From an uncultured Candidatus Saccharibacteria bacterium (GTDB lineage: Bacteria > Patescibacteriota > Minisyncoccia > Phycocordibacterales > JAKFXT01): DNA of 64,000 nucleotides. A model generated the notes under the pieces. The model did no database searches, was not told where the DNA came from, and worked only from the letters and a program-made list of their open reading frames with translations. This document shows, piece by piece, positions 2,359-43,456 of the stretch. The position numbers were made by a program, and so were the translations under genes. The stretch is taken from positions 1,281 to 65,280 of the forward strand of contig CAYLPX010000002.1 in NCBI GenBank assembly GCA_964385825.1, given 5' to 3'. Position 1 is the stretch's first letter; each line of letters begins with the position of its first letter.

Positions 2359-3630
2359 TTAGTACTCACGCATTGAGACTTGAGCGTCAATCTTGCGAAC
2401 AAGATCAAGCACCACTGACACCACAATAAGAAGTGAAGTTCCGCCGAGGGCTAGAGTTTGAATACCAGTAACACCTTGCATAATAAGTGGCAACACCGCA
2501 ATAAAGCCGAGGAACACAGCACCAACCAGCGTGATGCGGAGTACTATACGGCTGATATAGAGAGCAGTTGAAGTTCCGGGTCGTACTCCTGGGATAAAGG
2601 CGCCGTTTTTCTGGAGGTTTGTTGCGATTGTTTCTGGATCAAACGTTACTGCTGTATAGAAGTAAGTAAAAAGAAACACAAGAATAAAGTACGCGATACC
2701 ATAGAACCAGTGGTTAGCGATAAGGCCATTGAAGAACGTACCGATACGGTTAATCGTATCATTGTGAACGTAGGTCAAAATGTTGAAAAGCATTTGTGGG
2801 AACAAAAGAATAGAGAGTGCAAAGATAATCGGAATCACTCCAGCCTGGTTCATACGAAGTGGTAGGTAGGTAGAGATACCACCAAACACCTTGGAACCAC
2901 GAATGCGTTTAGCATACGTTACCGGAATTGGGCGCTCTGCCTCAGTTACCGCAACTACTGCCGCAATAATAGCGAGACCCACCACTATAAATCCTAGATA
3001 AAGTGGAATTTGTGAAGCTGTAAATGAGAAAGAGAGCTGAGCTAACTTAGTGGGTAGTGCTGCTACGATACCAGAGAAAATAATGAGTGAAACTCCATTT
3101 CCAATACCGAACTCAGTAATAAGTTCACCAAGCCACATAAGGAGAATAGACCCTGCAGCGATAATCAGCATGTTAAGTAGGAATGGGTAGAGCGTTAGAT
3201 GCTCTACGATACCCTGACGCTCAAGAAGCATAAGAAATGATGCCCCCTGAATGAACGCAAGTGGTACCGTGAGGAGGCGTGAGTACTGTGACATACGCTT
3301 GCGACCGAGCTCCCCTTCTTCTTGGTAAAGAGCCTTTAGACGAGGCGAGAGCATCGTAAGAAGCTGCATGATAATAGACCCCGTAATGTATGGACCAACT
3401 CCAAGCATCACGATAGAGAGGTTGGTAAGCCCACCACCTGAGAAAATATTAAGTAGTCCCAAAAGCTGGTTATTGGCAAGGAATGATTCAAGACGAGCAG
3501 TATCTACACCTGGAATCGGAATTGACGCTAAAATACGAAAAATAACAAGCGCCGCGAGTACGAAAAAGAGGCGTGAACGTAGTGAACTGTCTTTTATGAC
3601 CAGTGCTAATTTTCCGAATATATTTTTCAT
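2359..3630 (-). CDS. secY: preprotein translocase subunit SecY
   Basis: 423 aa polytopic membrane protein with SecY signature regions; follows rplO. Confidence 0.9.
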   Translation of the reverse strand: MKNIFGKLALVIKDSSLRSRLFFVLAALVIFRILASIPIPGVDTARLESFLANNQLLGLLNIFSGGGLTNLSIVMLGVGPYITGSIIMQLLTMLSPRLKALYQEEGELGRKRMSQYSRLLTVPLAFIQGASFLMLLERQGIVEHLTLYPFLLNMLIIAAGSILLMWLGELITEFGIGNGVSLIIFSGIVAALPTKLAQLSFSFTASQIPLYLGFIVVGLAIIAAVVAVTEAERPIPVTYAKRIRGSKVFGGISTYLPLRMNQAGVIPIIFALSILLFPQMLFNILTYVHNDTINRIGTFFNGLIANHWFYGIAYFILVFLFTYFYTAVTFDPETIATNLQKNGAFIPGVRPGTSTALYISRIVLRITLVGAVFLGFIAVLPLIMQGVTGIQTLALGGTSLLIVVSVVLDLVRKIDAQVSMREY

Positions 3631-6578: not shown

Positions 6579-7004
6579 ATGATCTACCAAGTAGGCAGTC
6601 ACACCTTCACTCCCGGTCTCTACATGAAACTGAAGACGGGTGAGCTTTTTCTCTTCCACCACGCCGTCCAAAACAGCCGCAAGGGCACCGGGGAGCCAGG
6701 TTCGACCAAGATGGTATATGTCTACTCGAACATTGCCGACGGGGACTTCATCTACCGACATCTTCCCTACTCACAGCTTCTTGCACCCAGCATCGCATTG
6801 CAGCTCTGCGACATGTGCAACCCAATGGACAAAGCGCTTGTAAGGATAGTGTACGATGCCTTCATGCAAAATACTGTTTTCGCGCGAAATTTTGCAAAGC
6901 CATTCGCCGAGTGGGCGAGCATGCACCGTATCCCGCTTTCGGTAAGCACCTCGATTGCAGGGATTCTGCATTTCGACACCCACCCCATGTTTCATGGGGT
7001 CTGA
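6579..7004 (+). CDS. hypothetical protein on GC-rich island, antisense to the ribosomal operon
   Basis: 141 aa ORF preceded by AGGAGG (gaaggaggtcgcATG). It has high GC and high GC3, unlike its neighbours. A GC-rich terminator follows. Confidence 0.5.
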   Translation: MIYQVGSHTFTPGLYMKLKTGELFLFHHAVQNSRKGTGEPGSTKMVYVYSNIADGDFIYRHLPYSQLLAPSIALQLCDMCNPMDKALVRIVYDAFMQNTVFARNFAKPFAEWASMHRIPLSVSTSIAGILHFDTHPMFHGV

Positions 7005-7010
7005 CTCATC

Positions 7011-7051
7011 CCCCCCCCCGCCGCGGAGTACCGCGGCGGGGACTATTTTTT
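7011..7051 (+). terminator. GC-rich hairpin plus T-run after the island ORF
   Basis: cccccccccgccgcggagtaccgcggcggggac followed by tatttttta. Confidence 0.65.
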
Positions 7052-7060
7052 ATATTCCTA

Positions 7061-7103
7061 AAACAAAAACTCCTCCCTAGTTTAGGGAGGAGTTTTTGTT
7101 TTG
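7061..7103. terminator. bidirectional intrinsic terminator immediately downstream of rplE
   Basis: aaaacaaaaactcctccctagtttagggaggagtttttgtttt: a perfect 10 bp stem with A/T runs on both sides. It falls between rplE and rpsN, which are normally co-transcribed. Confidence 0.75.
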
Positions 7104-7104
7104 C

Positions 7105-7662
7105 TTATTTCTTTGCAGCTTCTTTCTTAAAGGGAAAACCTAAGTGATCAAAGAAGGCCTTAGCTTCAGCGCGAGTCTTGGCAGTTGTTACAATAGTGAT
7201 AGCAAGACCGAATACATCTTTGATTTCTTCATCCACCACTTCTGGGAACACTACATGCTCCTTAAGACCGATGGTCATGTTACCGATATTGTCTACTCCA
7301 GAAGCATTAATGCCACGAAAGTCCTTAGTACGAGGAAGAGACACGTGGAGCAGTTTATCTAGAAAACCGATCATGCGGCTTCCGCGAATGGTTACCTGAT
7401 ATCCAATAGGGTCTCCAATACGAGTCTTGTAGCTCGCAATAGCTTGCTTAGCCTTACGAACTACTGGCTTCTGACCAGTGATTTTGGCAAGACGATCAGC
7501 AACCAGTTCTAGCTTTTTCTTATCCTTAAATGAACCAGTTCCAACTGAAACCACCACCTTAGTAAGACGAGGTGCCTGCATCACGTTCTTGTAGCCGAAC
7601 TGATCCTTCATTACCTTGAAGGATTCTTCACTTAATGTTTTTACGCTTTTGATAGTTGCCAT
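7105..7662 (-). CDS. rplE: 50S ribosomal protein L5
   Basis: 185 aa; L5 family (MQAPRLTKVVVSVG...); position between rplX and rpsN. Confidence 0.9.
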   Translation of the reverse strand: MATIKSVKTLSEESFKVMKDQFGYKNVMQAPRLTKVVVSVGTGSFKDKKKLELVADRLAKITGQKPVVRKAKQAIASYKTRIGDPIGYQVTIRGSRMIGFLDKLLHVSLPRTKDFRGINASGVDNIGNMTIGLKEHVVFPEVVDEEIKDVFGLAITIVTTAKTRAEAKAFFDHLGFPFKKEAAKK

Positions 7663-11125: not shown

Positions 11126-11695
11126 ATGCTTAGCAGGAAAAAATACCCCACCCTCGTGGGACTCATGGCCACCATTCCGGCTGTGAAAGTGGAAGTGGAG
11201 CAACTTCTCGCGGAGAAGTCCACTCCGAGCGGCGCCGCCGACAGGGCCGTGCACCAAATCGGTGCGGTGTTGGCCAAGCACGGCATGCTGAACGGCTTCG
11301 CGAAGTTGGCAGCAACCCCTCCGACCGCGCAAAGTACGGGTTCGGACGCTACCAGCTTCGGCTTCCCGATCGGCAACGATCGGCATGAACTCACCCGCCT
11401 GCGATTGCTTGCGGCCAAGGCTGAGGGCAACTACGATGAAGTGCGCGCCGAGGCCATGGCCACGCTTACGAACTGGGGAGGCAAGAGCCCCAGACGAGTC
11501 ACGGCCGGCCTCATCAGCCAAATCGTGGAAGGCACAGGGCGGCCCCGCTTCATTGCGGAACTGCTTGCCGCCAGCCCCACCGAACAGCATGGCGAGTTGC
11601 TGAAGCATGTCGCAGGCTACTACAGCAGAATCGGCCTGCGGGCTTCGCCCAAAAAGCTCCTCGCCGAGGCGCGGCAGGCAGGCTACCAGATCTAA
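11126..11695 (+). CDS. hypothetical protein on GC-rich island, antisense to the ribosomal operon
   Basis: 189 aa ORF with very high GC3 (gcc, ggc, ctg codons). SD ggggagaaaggtagcacATG. A strong terminator follows. The product is Ala/Leu-rich and helical. Confidence 0.5.
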   Translation: MLSRKKYPTLVGLMATIPAVKVEVEQLLAEKSTPSGAADRAVHQIGAVLAKHGMLNGFAKLAATPPTAQSTGSDATSFGFPIGNDRHELTRLRLLAAKAEGNYDEVRAEAMATLTNWGGKSPRRVTAGLISQIVEGTGRPRFIAELLAASPTEQHGELLKHVAGYYSRIGLRASPKKLLAEARQAGYQI

Positions 11696-11941: not shown

Positions 11942-12373
11942 CTACGAATGAGGTGCCGAACTGGTGTTGAAGAGTTCGGGGTCCGGCCAATCAAGCTTCG
12001 CCCCATCCAAAAGCGGCAAGGCCGCCTGGAAAAGATGGGCGATGTTGAAACACGCCGACTGGACGTCTTTTCCTGCCGTGTCGTCCTGCGCATCCTTCTG
12101 CAGAACGCGTATGAACATCTCCCCCACACGTATCCGACAGCGCCCCTCCTCACCTCGGCTCAAAACGCCTTGCCGAAAGGAAGCGGTGAGGATCTGGAGC
12201 AGTGTCTTGATTTCGTCACGATTCGGCCACGCTGAAGACTGAGCCCCAACCGATACCCTCTTCGTGAGTTGCTCAAGACGGTCCAGAATGAGCTCAACCA
12301 GAGTGTCCGCGACGCTCTTGATCGGCCGCTGCACGTACGCAACAGCCTCATTTATTTCAGGGTTTTCGTGCAC
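11942..12373 (-). CDS. hypothetical protein on GC-rich island
   Basis: 143 aa ORF with a GTG start preceded by GGAGGTG. High GC. The overlapping alternative ORFs on both strands make the coding call uncertain. Confidence 0.4.
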   Translation of the reverse strand: MHENPEINEAVAYVQRPIKSVADTLVELILDRLEQLTKRVSVGAQSSAWPNRDEIKTLLQILTASFRQGVLSRGEEGRCRIRVGEMFIRVLQKDAQDDTAGKDVQSACFNIAHLFQAALPLLDGAKLDWPDPELFNTSSAPHS

Positions 12374-15176: not shown

Positions 15177-15491
15177 CTACACACGAGGATTCTTGGGAAG
15201 CTGCGCGGAAAAGACGATAGGGGCTCCGCGTCCTCGACGAGGGGGCTTTTGGGAAACTCCAGCCCCCTCCTTTTTCGCAGCATTCTTCTGTGCCCGGGCC
15301 GCCCTTTCCGCCAACACCTTTGTCACATGTTGGGGTGCCAACACTTGCCCGGTTGCACTTTTCCATTTCTGATCTATCGGACTTAACCGATAGACCGTTC
15401 CATAATGCACGAGTTCATCTTTACGCATAAAAGCCCTCTCTAAACAATTCTTAAGAAACCTTATCACAACTATCTTTTTCACAAAAATCAA
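15177..15491 (-). CDS. possible small basic protein on GC-rich island (uncertain)
   Basis: 104 aa ORF. Its C-terminal half is GC-rich and basic (RAQKNAAKKEGAGVSQKPPRRGRG). The overlapping alternative frame means it could be noncoding. Confidence 0.25.
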   Translation of the reverse strand: MIFVKKIVVIRFLKNCLERAFMRKDELVHYGTVYRLSPIDQKWKSATGQVLAPQHVTKVLAERAARAQKNAAKKEGAGVSQKPPRRGRGAPIVFSAQLPKNPRV

Positions 15492-15570
15492 TTGACGTAT
15501 ATGAAGGATGAGGAGTACGCTTATTATTGGGTTAGTTCACCACACTGAAGTACCAACCAGGAGAAGAGCC

Positions 15571-15927
15571 ATGCCAGGAAGAGTGGTTGATACCTATAGT
15601 TCCCGCAGCATAGATGAGCTGCTTGCCATGATGACAGCAGACGTGGTCAATCGACCAAGGCCTACTGCTTCCCCCCTTTTTCAAGCTATTGAACACCGCG
15701 GACTACATCGCGGTGAAAAAGGAAAACCCGACAAGGTAACCCTGGCAGGGATCCTGAAGTACGCCAGGGCCCAACTGGAACAGGAAACTGAGACCAAGAT
15801 ACTTCTCGCCTTCGCCAAGCTCATCAATTCAATCCTAGACGACGTTGCCGATTTCGATGATGGGCTGCCGCGGCAATCCTTCGAGAAGGCTGTTGCGAAA
15901 ATTCCGCCACACTTGGCACAGAACTGA
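15571..15927 (+). CDS. hypothetical protein on GC-rich island, antisense to the ribosomal operon
   Basis: ATG at 15571 preceded by AGGAGA (ccaggagaagagccATG). It is the internal start of the tracked ORF 15508..15927. High GC; terminators follow. Confidence 0.45.
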   Translation: MPGRVVDTYSSRSIDELLAMMTADVVNRPRPTASPLFQAIEHRGLHRGEKGKPDKVTLAGILKYARAQLEQETETKILLAFAKLINSILDDVADFDDGLPRQSFEKAVAKIPPHLAQN

Positions 15928-15986: not shown

Positions 15987-16029
15987 CAAAACCCCTCCCT
16001 CGCGTCGCGAGGGAGGGGTTTTGTTTTTT
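15987..16029. terminator. bidirectional intrinsic terminator immediately downstream of rpsJ
   Basis: aaaacccctccctcgcgtcgcgagggaggggttttgtttttt. Confidence 0.75.
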
Positions 16030-33064: not shown

Positions 33065-33068
33065 ATAA

Positions 33069-33099
33069 TTAGTTTATAGTCTTTAGTTTATAGTCTATA
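33069..33099. repeat. tandem tagtttatagtct motif immediately upstream of the fusA start codon
   Basis: attagtttatagtctttagtttatagtctatag. A related agtttatagt...tagtcttatag motif recurs at 36021-36051, after rpmB. Confidence 0.7.
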
Positions 33100-33970
33100 G
33101 AAGCCCCACAAAAGAAAAAGCCCCTAGATAGGTAGCAAGCAGAATATCATCAAATATCCAAAAAAGAAAGCACGCCGACCCAAGTTTCCGGTCGGCGTGT
33201 AGCTCATGGTATTGGTATAGTCCAAAACTGCAGACTATTACTGTGCGCTCGGGGGGTACTTCATTTTCTTTGTACTCACTTCCTGTGAGGTACCCCCCCC
33301 TGTTCCCCCTATCTACCCAAGGGTAAGTTGGGGAACCCCCACTTCTGCTTTTGGCTTTCGCCTGGTCTGTCGTCTTGTCCGTTCGCACATACGCATATTG
33401 GGTAAGTAACGTTTCGGGAAACTACTAGGACTCTGGCGGACGTTGCGCCATTTTTCGCTTTGGGGTGTTGATCCCTCAACTTGACTCCATTGCCCGTCTT
33501 GAACTTACACGCCAATCGTCTTCTGGCCACAAGAGAGGTAAGGCCGAATCATGGCATACAATACAGGCAACCGACCACGAGTTTCTCTAAGGGGCACCCA
33601 GCAACATACTATACTATTTGCCCAAGATTGCACTGCCTCCAAGGGGCTACTTACTTTCCAAAAAATCAACAAGGGTAGGTTCGTTTTTCAAACTTGTATC
33701 AAGCTCTGTTTCTACTCCTGTGTGGGCTATATGATCAAAAACTGTTTCTGCGATGGTGTGATAGTTTGCGTTAAGGAGTTTCAGTAATAATGCTCTTAGC
33801 TCGTCCTTACACACATCAAGTTTAGGATTCTTAAATTTTGTTTCCATATTAGTTGCTACTAACAATACTACTCCTTAGATAAAAAGGTAAGGTTAAAAAT
33901 CTCGCGTAAGTTTAAGGCACAAAATTTCTGTAAGAAACCCTATTTTGAGATGCAGTACGAGGCGGGGAAT

Positions 33971-34011
33971 GAAAAAAGTCACTAGCTGTACAAGTAGTAC
34001 TGCTAGCGACT
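33971..34011 (-). terminator. intrinsic terminator downstream of rpsG
   Basis: Minus-strand hairpin (aagtcgctagcagtactacttgtacagctagtgactt, one mismatch) followed by tttttt. Confidence 0.6.
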
Positions 34012-34112
34012 TTTTCAAATTATTTAAAGTTATACTACCTATTCGTAACTTCAGAAAGTTCCTCAGGGCGCTCCATTTTGCAGTTGGAATTTACTTCGCT
34101 TGCGCTCGTAAA

Positions 34113-35774: not shown

Positions 35775-36017
35775 ATGGCAAAATCTTGCGCAATCACCAA
35801 TAAGACTTCAATCGTAGGCGGGGGCTACTCGAACGAGACTCGTGCTACCCAGTTCAACCCTACTGGCAAGCGTCGCCGCCATGTGAACCTCCAAAAGAAG
35901 CGTATTTTCATACCTGAACTCAACAAGAGTATGACCCTTACCCTCTCAACAGCTGCTATCCGTACTATCAACAAGAATGGGGCTTACGCCACACTCAAGA
36001 AGGCAGGACTCATCTAA
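35775..36017 (+). CDS. rpmB: 50S ribosomal protein L28
   Basis: 80 aa; MAKSCAITNKTSIVGGGYSNETRATQ...; L28 family. Confidence 0.8.
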   Translation: MAKSCAITNKTSIVGGGYSNETRATQFNPTGKRRRHVNLQKKRIFIPELNKSMTLTLSTAAIRTINKNGAYATLKKAGLI

Positions 36018-36060
36018 AACAGTTTATAGTTTTTAGTGGATAGTCTTATAGAAAACAAAA

Positions 36061-36097
36061 GCAAACTGCCGGCACGCGAAGCGTGCCGGCAGTTTGC
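36061..36097. terminator. bidirectional terminator after rpmB
   Basis: gcaaactgccggcacgcgaagcgtgccggcagtttgc followed by ttttcccc. Confidence 0.7.
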
Positions 36098-36173
36098 TTT
36101 TCCCCTTGACTCATTTTAAAACCGGCGTAAAGTTAATAGTGTCCCATTTCGGACTACACTCAAGGAGAGCATC

Positions 36174-36593
36174 ATGCAAAAGCATCGCCCGTCCCTGTGG
36201 AAATCGTTCTTCGCCAACCCCGCCAATGCGTTCGTCGGTATCGTGTCCCTGTTCGTCGGCATCCTCGCCTGGCTCGCCGAGCCCGATGCGCTGGCCGCGG
36301 CCTACACGACGTTCGACTTGCGTCCCTGGCTCGATCCGGTCCACGTCTTCGGCATGCTGTCGGCGTTTGGCCTCTTCCTGGTCGGCCTCGGTATTGCGTT
36401 CATCGTTGCGAAAACCGTCGCCCGGCACTACTTCAGCCACCGCCGGCCCGCGCTTCGCCAACTGTTGACCTTCGCCGTCGCCCAGACCAAAACTGCCTGG
36501 AAAAACCTGATCGCCATCGGCCACGCTACGGCCGCCATGATCGGCGCCGCGCTGCCGGCCTTCCGCCACCGCTCGGCTCCCCTGCTGAGCTGA
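36174..36593 (+). CDS. hypothetical small membrane protein on GC-rich island
   Basis: 139 aa. SD caaggagagcatcATG. GC3 is above 80%. Two or three predicted TM helices (FVGIVSLFVGILAWL; VFGMLSAFGLFLVGLGIAFIVA). Terminators follow. Confidence 0.55.
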   Translation: MQKHRPSLWKSFFANPANAFVGIVSLFVGILAWLAEPDALAAAYTTFDLRPWLDPVHVFGMLSAFGLFLVGLGIAFIVAKTVARHYFSHRRPALRQLLTFAVAQTKTAWKNLIAIGHATAAMIGAALPAFRHRSAPLLS

Positions 36594-36615
36594 CCGGTCG
36601 GCGTACTACAGTCCC

Positions 36616-36673
36616 GGCGCAACTGCGAGAGCTAGTTGCGCCAAAACCCCGCTTCGGCGGGGTTTTTTATTTT
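36616..36673 (+). terminator. tandem hairpins ending in a canonical intrinsic terminator
   Basis: ggcgcaactgcgagagctagttgcgcc, then aaaaccccgcttcggcggggttttttatttt. The T-run overlaps the stop codon of the convergent comEC-MBL gene. Confidence 0.8.
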
Positions 36674-37548
36674 ACCGAAACCTTACTACCATCAGAATCT
36701 ATTTCTATTCTCCCCAAGTTATCAGTGCGGAGAGTTTCAATATGAAGTGCATTAAACGTAGCAAGTGTTTCTTTATGTGGATGCCCATACCTATTATCCT
36801 TCCCCACCGATATCACCGCTATACTGGGGTGCACCGTTTGTACATACGTAGGATCACTCGAGGTGTGAGACCCATGATGCCCAGCTTTGAGCACGTCACT
36901 TTCTAAACCGGTTCCATCTAGCTGTGTTAGATGTTGCTCAATGTCTCTCGGTGCATCACCGCTAAATATAAAGTGGGTAGAGCCATACGTGAGACGCGCG
37001 ACAATTGAAGCTTCATTACTTTCTACATATGTCACATCTTTATCCGGATAGAGAATGTCTAGTGCTACTCCATCTTCCTCATCAAGTACCAGTCTCATCC
37101 CGCGTTTTGCAATAACTCTTTGATTCCCCAACTTTACTGCTTCAGTATCTAACCTCTTAAATGCCTGCGTATCTTTAGTTCTATTCCCCGACTCAAGAAA
37201 CATGCCTACTTTATAGCGTGACAATACTTCAGGTAACCCTCCCACATGATCTGCATCAGGGTGAGTTGCTATAACCACATCAATATCATGATCAAGTGGC
37301 GAAAGTACTGCTCCGAGTTCCGTGAGCACTTTATTATCTGTAGGACCTCCATCAATCAATACTTGATTTCCATTCGGTGCTTCAATAAGTGTGGCGTCTC
37401 CCTGTCCAATATTAAGATAAAAAACTTTCAAAGTAGTTTTTCTTGTTTGAGGGGAAAAAGCCTCTCGCCAAACAAAAACATTGCTGAACAATAAGATAAA
37501 TACTACCCCTGGCAATATATAATTTCGCACACTTCGCAGTTTATCCAT
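36667..37548 (-). CDS. ComEC-like MBL-fold metallo-hydrolase domain protein (stand-alone ComEC C-terminal domain)
   Basis: 293 aa. An N-terminal TM is followed by a metallo-beta-lactamase fold (HPDADHVGG; GHHGSHTSS). Confidence 0.7.
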   Translation of the reverse strand: MDKLRSVRNYILPGVVFILLFSNVFVWREAFSPQTRKTTLKVFYLNIGQGDATLIEAPNGNQVLIDGGPTDNKVLTELGAVLSPLDHDIDVVIATHPDADHVGGLPEVLSRYKVGMFLESGNRTKDTQAFKRLDTEAVKLGNQRVIAKRGMRLVLDEEDGVALDILYPDKDVTYVESNEASIVARLTYGSTHFIFSGDAPRDIEQHLTQLDGTGLESDVLKAGHHGSHTSSDPTYVQTVHPSIAVISVGKDNRYGHPHKETLATFNALHIETLRTDNLGRIEIDSDGSKVSVK

Positions 37549-38267: not shown

Positions 38268-38483
38268 ATGCGTTCCGCTCAAAATGAACAAAATGTCCGG
38301 GAGTTCGCTTTCGGATGCTCCCCGCCGGCAGTCAACAAGCCCGTACCACGAATGACCTTGCGGGAGATGGCGCAGAACGCCCGCATCGACAAGGTGAACG
38401 AGGCATGCCTTGGTGTCCTGCGCAATCTTCGGTCACGGGCCAAAGACAAAGGCGGCGCTTTCCCGGGAGTTCCGGGGTTCTGA
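38268..38483 (+). CDS. hypothetical small protein on GC-rich island
   Basis: 71 aa ORF; SD gtgaggagttcggcATG; about 58% GC; a terminator follows. Confidence 0.35.
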   Translation: MRSAQNEQNVREFAFGCSPPAVNKPVPRMTLREMAQNARIDKVNEACLGVLRNLRSRAKDKGGAFPGVPGF

Positions 38484-43198: not shown

Positions 43199-43456
43199 AA
43201 CAAAAACAGCCTGCACTACCCCGTGAGGTTAAGTGCAGGCCGGGCTCCAATCGCAGATTCCTACTAAAAGCGTGTGGTATTTCAACGTCGGCTCCACCCA
43301 TCCCGGAAGCAGGGTTTCAAAGCCTCCCACATATCCTACACCCTCTTTTTTCACAATCTTTGACCACTGCAAGGAGTCGAACCTTGCACCATGTGCGGTA
43401 CCGTAGTGTTGTTACGAGCCAGAAGGAGTATACCCCCTCAACTTTAAAAAGTAAAA

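Follow-up and report, generated by a model that had tools for sequence, protein, structure and literature searches.

We analysed the gap between the ribosomal-protein gene rpmB and a convergent, ComEC-type metallo-beta-lactamase (MBL) gene in a 64,000-nt stretch of the Candidatus Saccharibacteria contig CAYLPX010000002.1 (hereafter the window; coordinates are window positions unless another contig is named). The window has a GC content of 44.4%, and a sliding scan of 150 nt revealed seven stretches above 58% GC. One of the seven, the island at 36135-36706 (61% GC), contains a forward-strand open reading frame (ORF) of 139 aa, which we call ORF139 (Table 1). A first-pass annotation of the window had described it as a genuinely coding but compositionally foreign gene for a small membrane protein, with hydrophobic helices, an extreme GC content at third codon positions (GC3) and terminators on both sides. 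The ORF itself and each of these factual elements were borne out, and the term foreign held in part, as described below.

The gene in the rpmB–MBL gap

As the same annotation had pointed to unsupported junctions as a possible sign of chimerism or contamination, the junctions of the island were checked at the contig level. Contigs spanning rpmB, the ORF and the MBL gene were taken from JGI (3300045345-53), Logan (SRR237025xx and SRR12487035) and ENA (ERZ4216102), and more than 15 independently assembled contigs (JGI, ENA and Logan samples) carried both junctions at a nucleotide identity of 99.97-100%. The exact ORF139 protein is encoded on contigs of six JGI samples and one Logan run, and a look-up with the rpmB protein added contigs from ENA ERZ4216102 and from Logan SRR12487035, SRR23702504 and SRR23702507. 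On matching contigs the gene order around ORF139 was invariably M50-rpmB-ORF-MBL-SOD. Population contigs from around the locus (~20 kb) showed just two single-nucleotide polymorphisms, both G>A and both within the 420 nt of ORF139 (A79T and a synonymous change at P128).

The GC contents at the first, second and third codon positions of ORF139 are 0.62, 0.49 and 0.85, and none of 10,000 nucleotide shuffles reached this phase-specific GC excess in any phase. GC3 stays at 0.83-0.87 in every third of both deep orthologues, the unalignable middle included, the reading frame is kept across orthologues despite indels, and dN/dS was below 1 in the ORF139 comparisons. The GC3 periodicity in all thirds, the Shine-Dalgarno sequence with its start codon and the indel-tolerant frame confirmed that the gene is genuinely coding, as the first-pass annotation had proposed. 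Gene callers disagree at this place, having chosen the 139-aa sense ORF, a 152-aa antisense ORF or ORFs of 215 aa and 169 aa in another frame, and the apparent rarity of the family in protein databases arises partly because pipelines called different ORFs.

Kyte-Doolittle hydropathy analysis gave two strong segments at residues 17-35 (2.09) and 61-79 (2.44) and a marginal third at residues 112-130 (1.69), consistent with the small helical membrane protein proposed before. The product is predicted to be a basic inner-membrane protein of 139 aa with its N-terminus inside, two transmembrane (TM) helices and a short acidic outer loop; TM2 would be followed by a basic cytoplasmic segment and then by a conserved amphipathic C-terminal helix carrying the motif WK.L.AIGHATA. 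This motif is conserved in the ORF139 family together with WKSFF and LAWL.EP.AL. As to function, we can only tentatively suggest that the protein is non-essential and belongs to the envelope, where it might be an adaptor or modulator at the membrane of the epibiont.

An exhaustive phmmer search of 1.84 billion representatives returned two clusters only (clustered at 50% identity), and a profile search among ~15 billion proteins gave four alleles as all members of the family. No family at or above threshold was found for ORF139 or its orthologues in Pfam, PHROGs, PADLOC, NCBIfam or a PDB sequence search, and viral contigs (IMG/VR) scanned with the family profile contained no relative. The sole sub-threshold match of the family was to LPXTG_anchor (P0002 and P0004) and stems from the succession of TM2 and an RRR stretch. 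As judged from these searches, ORF139 is an orphan gene of restricted taxonomic range, its four alleles all coming from a single narrow clade of Saccharibacteria. A phage holin or other small phage membrane protein was rejected as a candidate, there being no PHROG or Pfam match, no IMG/VR relative and only core chromosomal genes as neighbours; a known anti-phage defence protein was rejected for want of a PADLOC match. Type I toxins usually have fewer than 60 aa, one TM helix and an overlapping antisense small RNA with its own promoter. Compared with these, 139 aa and two TM helices are atypical, and no antisense promoter-like site was reported inside 36100-36670.

The unit at 36057-36673 is best read as a monocistronic accessory gene closed by terminators on both sides, matching the bracketed arrangement of the first-pass annotation (36057-36101 upstream; 36616-36642 and 36643-36666 downstream). 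The upstream hairpin would terminate rpmB transcription and insulate the cassette; sister lineages have a differing GC-rich hairpin in its place. Behind it, the block CTTGACTC..TAAAA..GCGTA(A/G)AGT.AATAGTGTCC, reading TTGACT-16-TA(A/G)AGT, is kept in the window and in contigs L008 and L170 of related lineages, amid intergenic DNA that has turned over and is unalignable between lineages. This promoter motif has no second copy within the window. The small hairpin of the 5' untranslated region (UTR) and the stretch GGAGA..CATCATG, with the Shine-Dalgarno sequence and the ATG, are also kept in three lineages. The GC content of 36101-36173 is 0.44, a normal level for this genome, and the GC excess is limited to the coding sequence and the hairpins. 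At the far end, the T-run of the terminator (36663-36668) does overlap the TAA stop codon of the convergent MBL gene on the minus strand, as had been noted, and L008 has an equivalent CCCCGC..GCGGGG terminator. Read in this way, transcription would run from the gene's own conserved sigma-70-like promoter to the common terminator, giving an mRNA of ~0.5 kb, and translation would start from the GGAG Shine-Dalgarno sequence.

Table 1. Coordinates of the ORF139 locus, of companion GC-richer units in the window and of GC3-rich small ORFs on two distant contigs
Feature	Position	Strand	Details
rpmB	35775..36017		Pfam Ribosomal_L28
Bidirectional intrinsic-terminator hairpin	36057..36101	.	Perfect 20-bp stem, A-run left, T-run right; directly after rpmB
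Sigma-70-type promoter-like site	36106..36133	+	TTGACT, 16-nt spacer, TAAAGT; 9/12 consensus matches
5' UTR	36134..36173	+	Small hairpin GTCC 36141-36144 / GGAC 36151-36154; Shine-Dalgarno GGAGAG 36164-36169
ORF139 coding sequence	36174..36593	+	139 aa, basic, pI 11.3; predicted TM1 ~17-35, TM2 ~56-80
First 3' hairpin	36616..36642	+	GGCGCAACT / AGTTGCGCC; not kept in L008
Intrinsic terminator	36643..36673	.	Stem-loop 36643-36666, AAAACCCCGC-TTCG-GCGGGGTTTT and T-run; common to cassette and convergent MBL gene
MBL gene	36667..37548	-	Convergent to ORF139; TAA stop 36667-36669
Unit	6579..7004	+	141 aa; GC3 0.66
Unit	11126..11695	+	189 aa; GC3 0.75; also orphan
Unit	11942..12373	-	143 aa; GC3 0.66
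Unit	15177..15491	-	104 aa; GC3 0.49 (well below others)
Unit	15508..15927	+	139 aa; GC3 0.52 (well below others)
Unit	38268..38483	+	71 aa; GC3 0.65; between SOD and ComEC; own Shine-Dalgarno and terminator
GC3-rich small ORFs, contig L014	43-234, 4860-5099, 6154-6426, 7699-8055
GC3-rich small ORFs, contig L103	3430-3675, 4816-5091

Orthologues, evolutionary rates and base composition

A genome scan yielded one close relative, the Ca. Saccharibacteria metagenome-assembled genome (MAG) CAZIPS01 (L008 and L184), whose MBL and rpmB proteins are 84% and 100% identical to those of the window. At the same rpmB/MBL place, L008 has an ORF of 129 aa that is 38-45% identical to ORF139 and carries the same three motifs. 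The P0004 allele was found in L170 and L187, in the context M50-rpmB-ORF-MBL, and the P0005 allele in L171, so that an orthologue lies at this site in three related Saccharibacteria lineages; the L008 type occurs in five datasets, the L170/L187 type in two datasets and the L171 type in one contig. With the MBL protein as query, a metagenome scan gave no relative in the range from 48% to 100% identity. In more distant Saccharibacteria of the same synteny the gap has other occupants, namely a 79-aa ORF in L014 (GC3 0.69) and a 166-aa ORF of ordinary composition in L016.

Contig L171 (JGI 3300045388 Ga0490039_006601) is unusual in its structure. From position 2845 onwards, starting in codon 7-8 of the ORF139-family gene, its match to the L008 type is 92%, and positions 1-2845 hold phage-tail genes (62-70% GC; one for a collar-domain tail fibre and one, truncated, for baseplate J) in place of rpmB, the promoter and the start codon. 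A scan with the baseplate fragment gave no match. The fusion may be a chimera, or GC-rich phage DNA may really have been captured here.

Between the window and L008, dS was 0.68 for the cassette (pS 0.447), 1.5-1.9 (saturated) for MBL, SOD, M50 and ComEC, and 0.47-0.98 for rpmB, rpsL and rpsG. The corresponding dN/dS was ~0.7 for the cassette (dN 0.485) and 0.01-0.10 for the flanks (dN 0.005-0.16). In the close pairs (L008, L170 and L171) the cassette had a dS of 0.12-0.16 and a dN/dS of 0.46-0.70, compared with 0.15-0.37 and 0.00-0.11 in the flanks. Because cassette and flank divergence run parallel in these rates, ORF139 is judged to co-diverge with its neighbours, as vertical descent predicts, and we take the comparisons to show vertical inheritance at this locus since before the lineages split. 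Over all comparisons the cassette dN/dS spans 0.46-0.72, and that of the flanks 0.00-0.11. By the same estimates the ORF139 protein evolves at 4-10 times the pace of its neighbours, with most of the change in TM2 and the loops; close alleles differ mainly through conservative exchanges of hydrophobic residues in TM2 and through alterations of the basic loop behind it. The pattern resembles that of a membrane anchor whose constraint has relaxed around motifs conserved at the N- and C-termini, and fits this better than an arms race.

The base composition of ORF139 is far from that of the genome. The window has 43 ORFs of 150 aa or more, with a mean GC3 of 0.39 (sd 0.083), which puts ORF139 (0.85) ~5.5 sd out, and its relative synonymous codon usage (RSCU) correlates at -0.14 with that of highly expressed genes and at -0.45 with that of other genes. 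GC at second codon positions is also raised, via a protein rich in Ala, Gly, Pro and Arg. Ribosomal-protein and elongation-factor genes prefer CTT, GCT, GGA/GGT, CCA, CGT and AAG, and ORF139 prefers CTG, GCC, GGC, CCC, CGC and AAA; codon bias as translational optimisation was rejected, as ORF139 favours the codons rarest in those genes. With CTG, GCC, GTC and CCC the rarest codons in the genome, low or slow translation is predicted because ORF139 uses them.

The same composition is present in the relatives. Third-position frequencies of A/C/G/T are 0.04/0.55/0.30/0.10 in the window and 0.05/0.56/0.30/0.09 in L008, and GC3 is 0.80-0.86 in all four alleles and 0.86 in both deep orthologues. Where the amino acid is identical, the cassette retains the same codon at 0.71 vs 0.54 by chance (~37% residual signal), and the flanks do so at ~0.50 vs ~0.38 by chance (~20% residual signal). 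This two-lineage signal of 0.2-0.37 would imply a per-lineage signal of ~0.45-0.6, and a gene relaxing toward the flanks' 0.39 would by now, even from a starting GC3 of 1.0, be expected at ~0.65-0.75, compared with the observed 0.86. Changes polarised on the L170 and L171 tips comprised eight AT>GC, eight GC>AT and seven GC<>GC. Because synonymous sites of the flanks are saturated, yet both orthologues keep a GC3 of 0.86 and near-identical third-position frequencies, the composition is best read as long-resident and roughly stationary rather than decaying. The earlier description as foreign stood as far as codon usage is concerned, which is alien to this genome (GC3 0.85 vs 0.39; RSCU -0.14/-0.45), but not in the sense of a recent import, given the synteny in three lineages, the co-divergence, a donor homologue that was not found and a GC3 of 0.80-0.86 despite saturated flanks.

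Origin of ORF139

Taken together, we consider ORF139, at a probability of roughly 70%, to be a genuine orphan gene, long resident and moron-like, that encodes a small membrane protein, with vertical descent and a stationary composition after an ancient capture. It probably goes back to a single capture event, in which a permissive gap between terminators took up GC-rich DNA of a high-GC host bacterium or of a phage of that host, with natural transformation as the likely route; the atypical composition would since have been held by selection or by a biased fixation process. The result can be likened to a phage 'moron' sitting in a cellular chromosome. Saccharibacteria are naturally competent via ComEC, and promoter-gene-terminator cassettes integrate experimentally by homologous recombination between convergent ORFs (PMC10633639); because competence and such integration have been demonstrated, a single ancient capture is plausible. 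Cultivated Saccharibacteria grow on Actinobacteria (PMC10633639). Their type IV secretion system is generally without a relaxase (PMC12102498), which argues against DNA export to hosts.

No signature of mobility was seen near ORF139: its neighbours are rpmB, the M50 protease, MBL and SOD, no tRNA lies nearby, and an integrase is absent among the window ORFs and the called genes of related loci. Repeats or boundary motifs common to the five islands did not go beyond chance 10-12-mers, and no att-like sites or mobility genes were found. An integron gene cassette was rejected as a candidate, since the islands have no attC-type repeat in common, each cassette has its own promoter and there is no integrase.

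Several points weigh against this account. Promoter and terminator are consensus matches, and the region has no surplus of promoter-like sites (5 vs 6.2 expected). The topology comes from hydropathy and charge alone, the AlphaFold2 model on a two-sequence alignment being poor (predicted local distance difference test score 55). Stationarity rests on four alleles and a few polarised changes; at third positions alone GC>AT exceeds AT>GC by 5 to 1 (small numbers), and GC3 is slightly lower (0.80-0.82) in L170 and L171, so a slow erosion is possible. No donor turned up in the protein and viral searches.

Alternative explanations concern either the reality of the gene or its history. GC shifts abruptly at the island and contigs frequently end near GC-rich islands, as would be expected of an assembly chimera or contamination; identical junctions in independent assemblies from several sources, and orthologues of sister lineages in the same context, make the probability of this negligible, and chimerism or contamination is already refuted for the window. 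It might also be argued that the island is not a protein gene at all, and represents either a GC-rich structured RNA or a spurious ORF, since several frames of GC-rich DNA are open. ORF139 does overlap others, of 152 aa (antisense) and 182 aa (other frame), gene callers picked such frames in several assemblies, and the RNA fold z-score is -2.35. However, this z-score is unremarkable and comes mostly from the terminators. Rfam gave no match at the gathering threshold, and the matches with an E-value <=1 were terminator look-alikes, almost entirely on the terminator hairpins. Furthermore, the phase-specific GC is held in both orthologues even in turned-over sequence, the Shine-Dalgarno sequence and ATG are conserved, and hydrophobic helices and conserved peptide motifs occur in this frame alone, so that a non-coding island is very improbable.

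With regard to history, the first-pass annotation implied a recent horizontal import from a high-GC donor, not yet ameliorated. The codon usage, like that of a 65% GC genome and alien to this one, would fit such an event, as would the natural competence of Saccharibacteria and their life on high-GC Actinobacteria (PMC10633639) and the direct joining of 2.85 kb of phage-tail DNA (62-70% GC) to an ORF139-family gene in L171. Orthologues nevertheless occupy the same site in lineages with synonymously saturated flanks, cassette dS tracks flank dS in the close pairs, third-position composition is alike in both deep orthologues, and a donor homologue was not found among ~15 billion proteins or in IMG/VR. 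Both orthologues also have a Lys AAA:AAG ratio of 4:1, which is unusual for high-GC donors. On these comparisons recent import is already disfavoured, and we regard it as quite unlikely. Alternatively, the site could be a hotspot that is re-seeded by recombination with related GC-rich cassettes from an unsampled pool of phage, plasmid or host DNA, leaving them no time to decay. Such recurrent replacement would be in keeping with the different occupants of the gap in the distant L014 and L016, with the L171 junction to GC-rich phage DNA and with the swapping of cassette-flanking terminator hairpins between strains and species. Against it, the promoter and 5' UTR block is conserved together with the gene, allele divergence parallels flank divergence, no member of the pool was seen in the searches of 1.84 billion representatives, of profiles or of viral contigs, and the islands lack common repeats, att-like sites and mobility genes. 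We consider replacement unlikely, and favour the long-resident gene of ancient capture.

Companion units and comparison with known systems

The window holds at least seven GC-richer orphan units including ORF139 (Table 1), and the companions of ORF139 have no Pfam match. Where the flanking sequence was read, each companion unit has its own Shine-Dalgarno sequence and hairpin terminator. The cassettes at 6579, 11126, 11942 and 38268 matched no family at or above threshold in those libraries, among Pfam, PHROGs, PADLOC, NCBIfam and PDB, in which each was scanned. Five units break the minus-strand S10/spc ribosomal-protein cluster three times (S14|141 aa|L5, S19|189 aa + 143 aa|L2 and L3|104 aa + 139 aa|S10), and the hairpin terminators flanking them imply an operon divided into pieces with promoters of their own. 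In L008 the counterpart of the 71-aa gene is a syntenic orthologue of 59 aa (3101-3277, minus strand; 34-36% identity, GC3 0.66). Contigs L001 and L003 end or diverge inside the 71-aa gene (window 38328 and 38372), which hints at strain heterogeneity. A distant Saccharibacteria pair, L014 and L103, has GC3-rich small ORFs of its own (0.57-0.73, with the background at 0.27-0.32), which lie in the gaps near MBL, rpmB, M50 and rpsL. They include two pairs of orthologues with 41-43% identity, and the phenomenon thus reaches beyond the lineage of the window.

Hairpins at several places in the window drew attention in their own right. When window 7019-7093 was compared with L172 (ENA ERZ4216102), 22 of the 22 differences over 8.3 kb fell inside this 75-nt terminator-hairpin region downstream of the 141-aa cassette, and the hairpin allele has been swapped. 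The post-rpmB hairpin of L008 and L170 (CCCCTCCCTCGC..GCGAGGGAGGGG) is nearly identical to window 15987-16022, a different locus, and a hairpin of the type CCTCCCT..AGGGAGG occurs three times in the window vs zero expected. At the end of contig L173, 29 mismatches fall in the 190 nt matching window 7432-7621 (rplE), many of them spaced by multiples of three, and the rest of the contig is identical; the cluster looks like a recombinant tract or a second strain. On the minus strand at 43266-43347, between the convergent pgk and HIT-family genes, 82 nt match the L1-stalk of bacterial 23S rRNA (helices 76-78, model 2130-2211) at 48-54 bits, with no rRNA gene detected elsewhere in the window. It may be a mimic or decoy for L1 binding, or a piece of rRNA that was captured. 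Finally, the str operon, usually contiguous, is parted between rpsG and fusA by a gap of ~1 kb (33065-34112) of ordinary GC content, which holds only short ORFs that match no family; one assembly called a 66-aa gene there.

None of the papers retrieved deals with GC-rich orphan cassettes in Saccharibacteria. It is conceivable, if doubtful, that these units form an undescribed class of insulated, fast-evolving orphans in the most conserved parts of the chromosome, S10/spc included, with actively maintained high-GC codons, as a host-interaction gene set of epibiotic bacteria of the candidate phyla radiation. The maintained GC may be tuned to a high-GC actinobacterial host, or may reflect continual exchange with DNA of the host or its phages; the L171 junction hints at exchange. 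If the pattern were genome-wide, it would point to a force that acts on the base composition of particular genes within the reduced genome of an epibiont, and would mark a lineage-specific set of envelope or accessory proteins of the kind expected behind the poorly understood interaction between Saccharibacteria and their hosts. Compositional outliers are routinely read as recent transfer or MAG contamination, and ORF139 is, on our reading, neither. As it is reproducible, syntenic across species and compositionally stationary, the usual amelioration clock is not applicable to it. Moreover, three different wrong frames were called for the cassette in public assemblies, and such genes are consequently under-represented in protein databases.

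Among known systems, the phage morons of Hendrix and colleagues are extra genes with their own promoter and terminator and an atypical base composition that lie between conserved genes. The ORF139 unit resembles them in its apparent autonomy (promoter, Shine-Dalgarno sequence and terminator), in being compositionally distinct from conserved neighbours, dispensable-looking and without a known function, and in the presence of several such units in one conserved gene array. Unlike morons, it is part of a cellular chromosome rather than of a prophage, with companion units even within ribosomal-protein operons; it is vertical across species and its composition persists. Bacterial ORFans, reportedly treated by Daubin and Ochman in 2004, are said to be short, clade-restricted, fast-evolving and typically AT-richer than their genome. 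ORF139 is likewise short, confined to one narrow clade, fast-evolving and without detectable homologues, whereas ORF139 and its companions are much GC-richer (GC3 0.65-0.85 vs 0.39). The horizontally acquired islets for which Lawrence and Ochman reportedly developed the amelioration model in 1997 are similar in that the GC of ORF139 is atypical at all three codon positions and the gene adjoins highly conserved ones; they differ in that no mobility genes, flanking repeats, tRNA site or donor were found for ORF139, and no amelioration is seen across a divergence that saturates its flanks. A further parallel is with the cassettes engineered in Saccharibacteria (Wang et al. 2023, PMC10633639), which belong to the same phylum and likewise place a promoter, gene and terminator in a gap between convergent genes, there at neutral intergenic sites. 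Whereas those constructs were made in the laboratory with designed homology arms, the capture of ORF139 would have been a natural event, inferred rather than observed.

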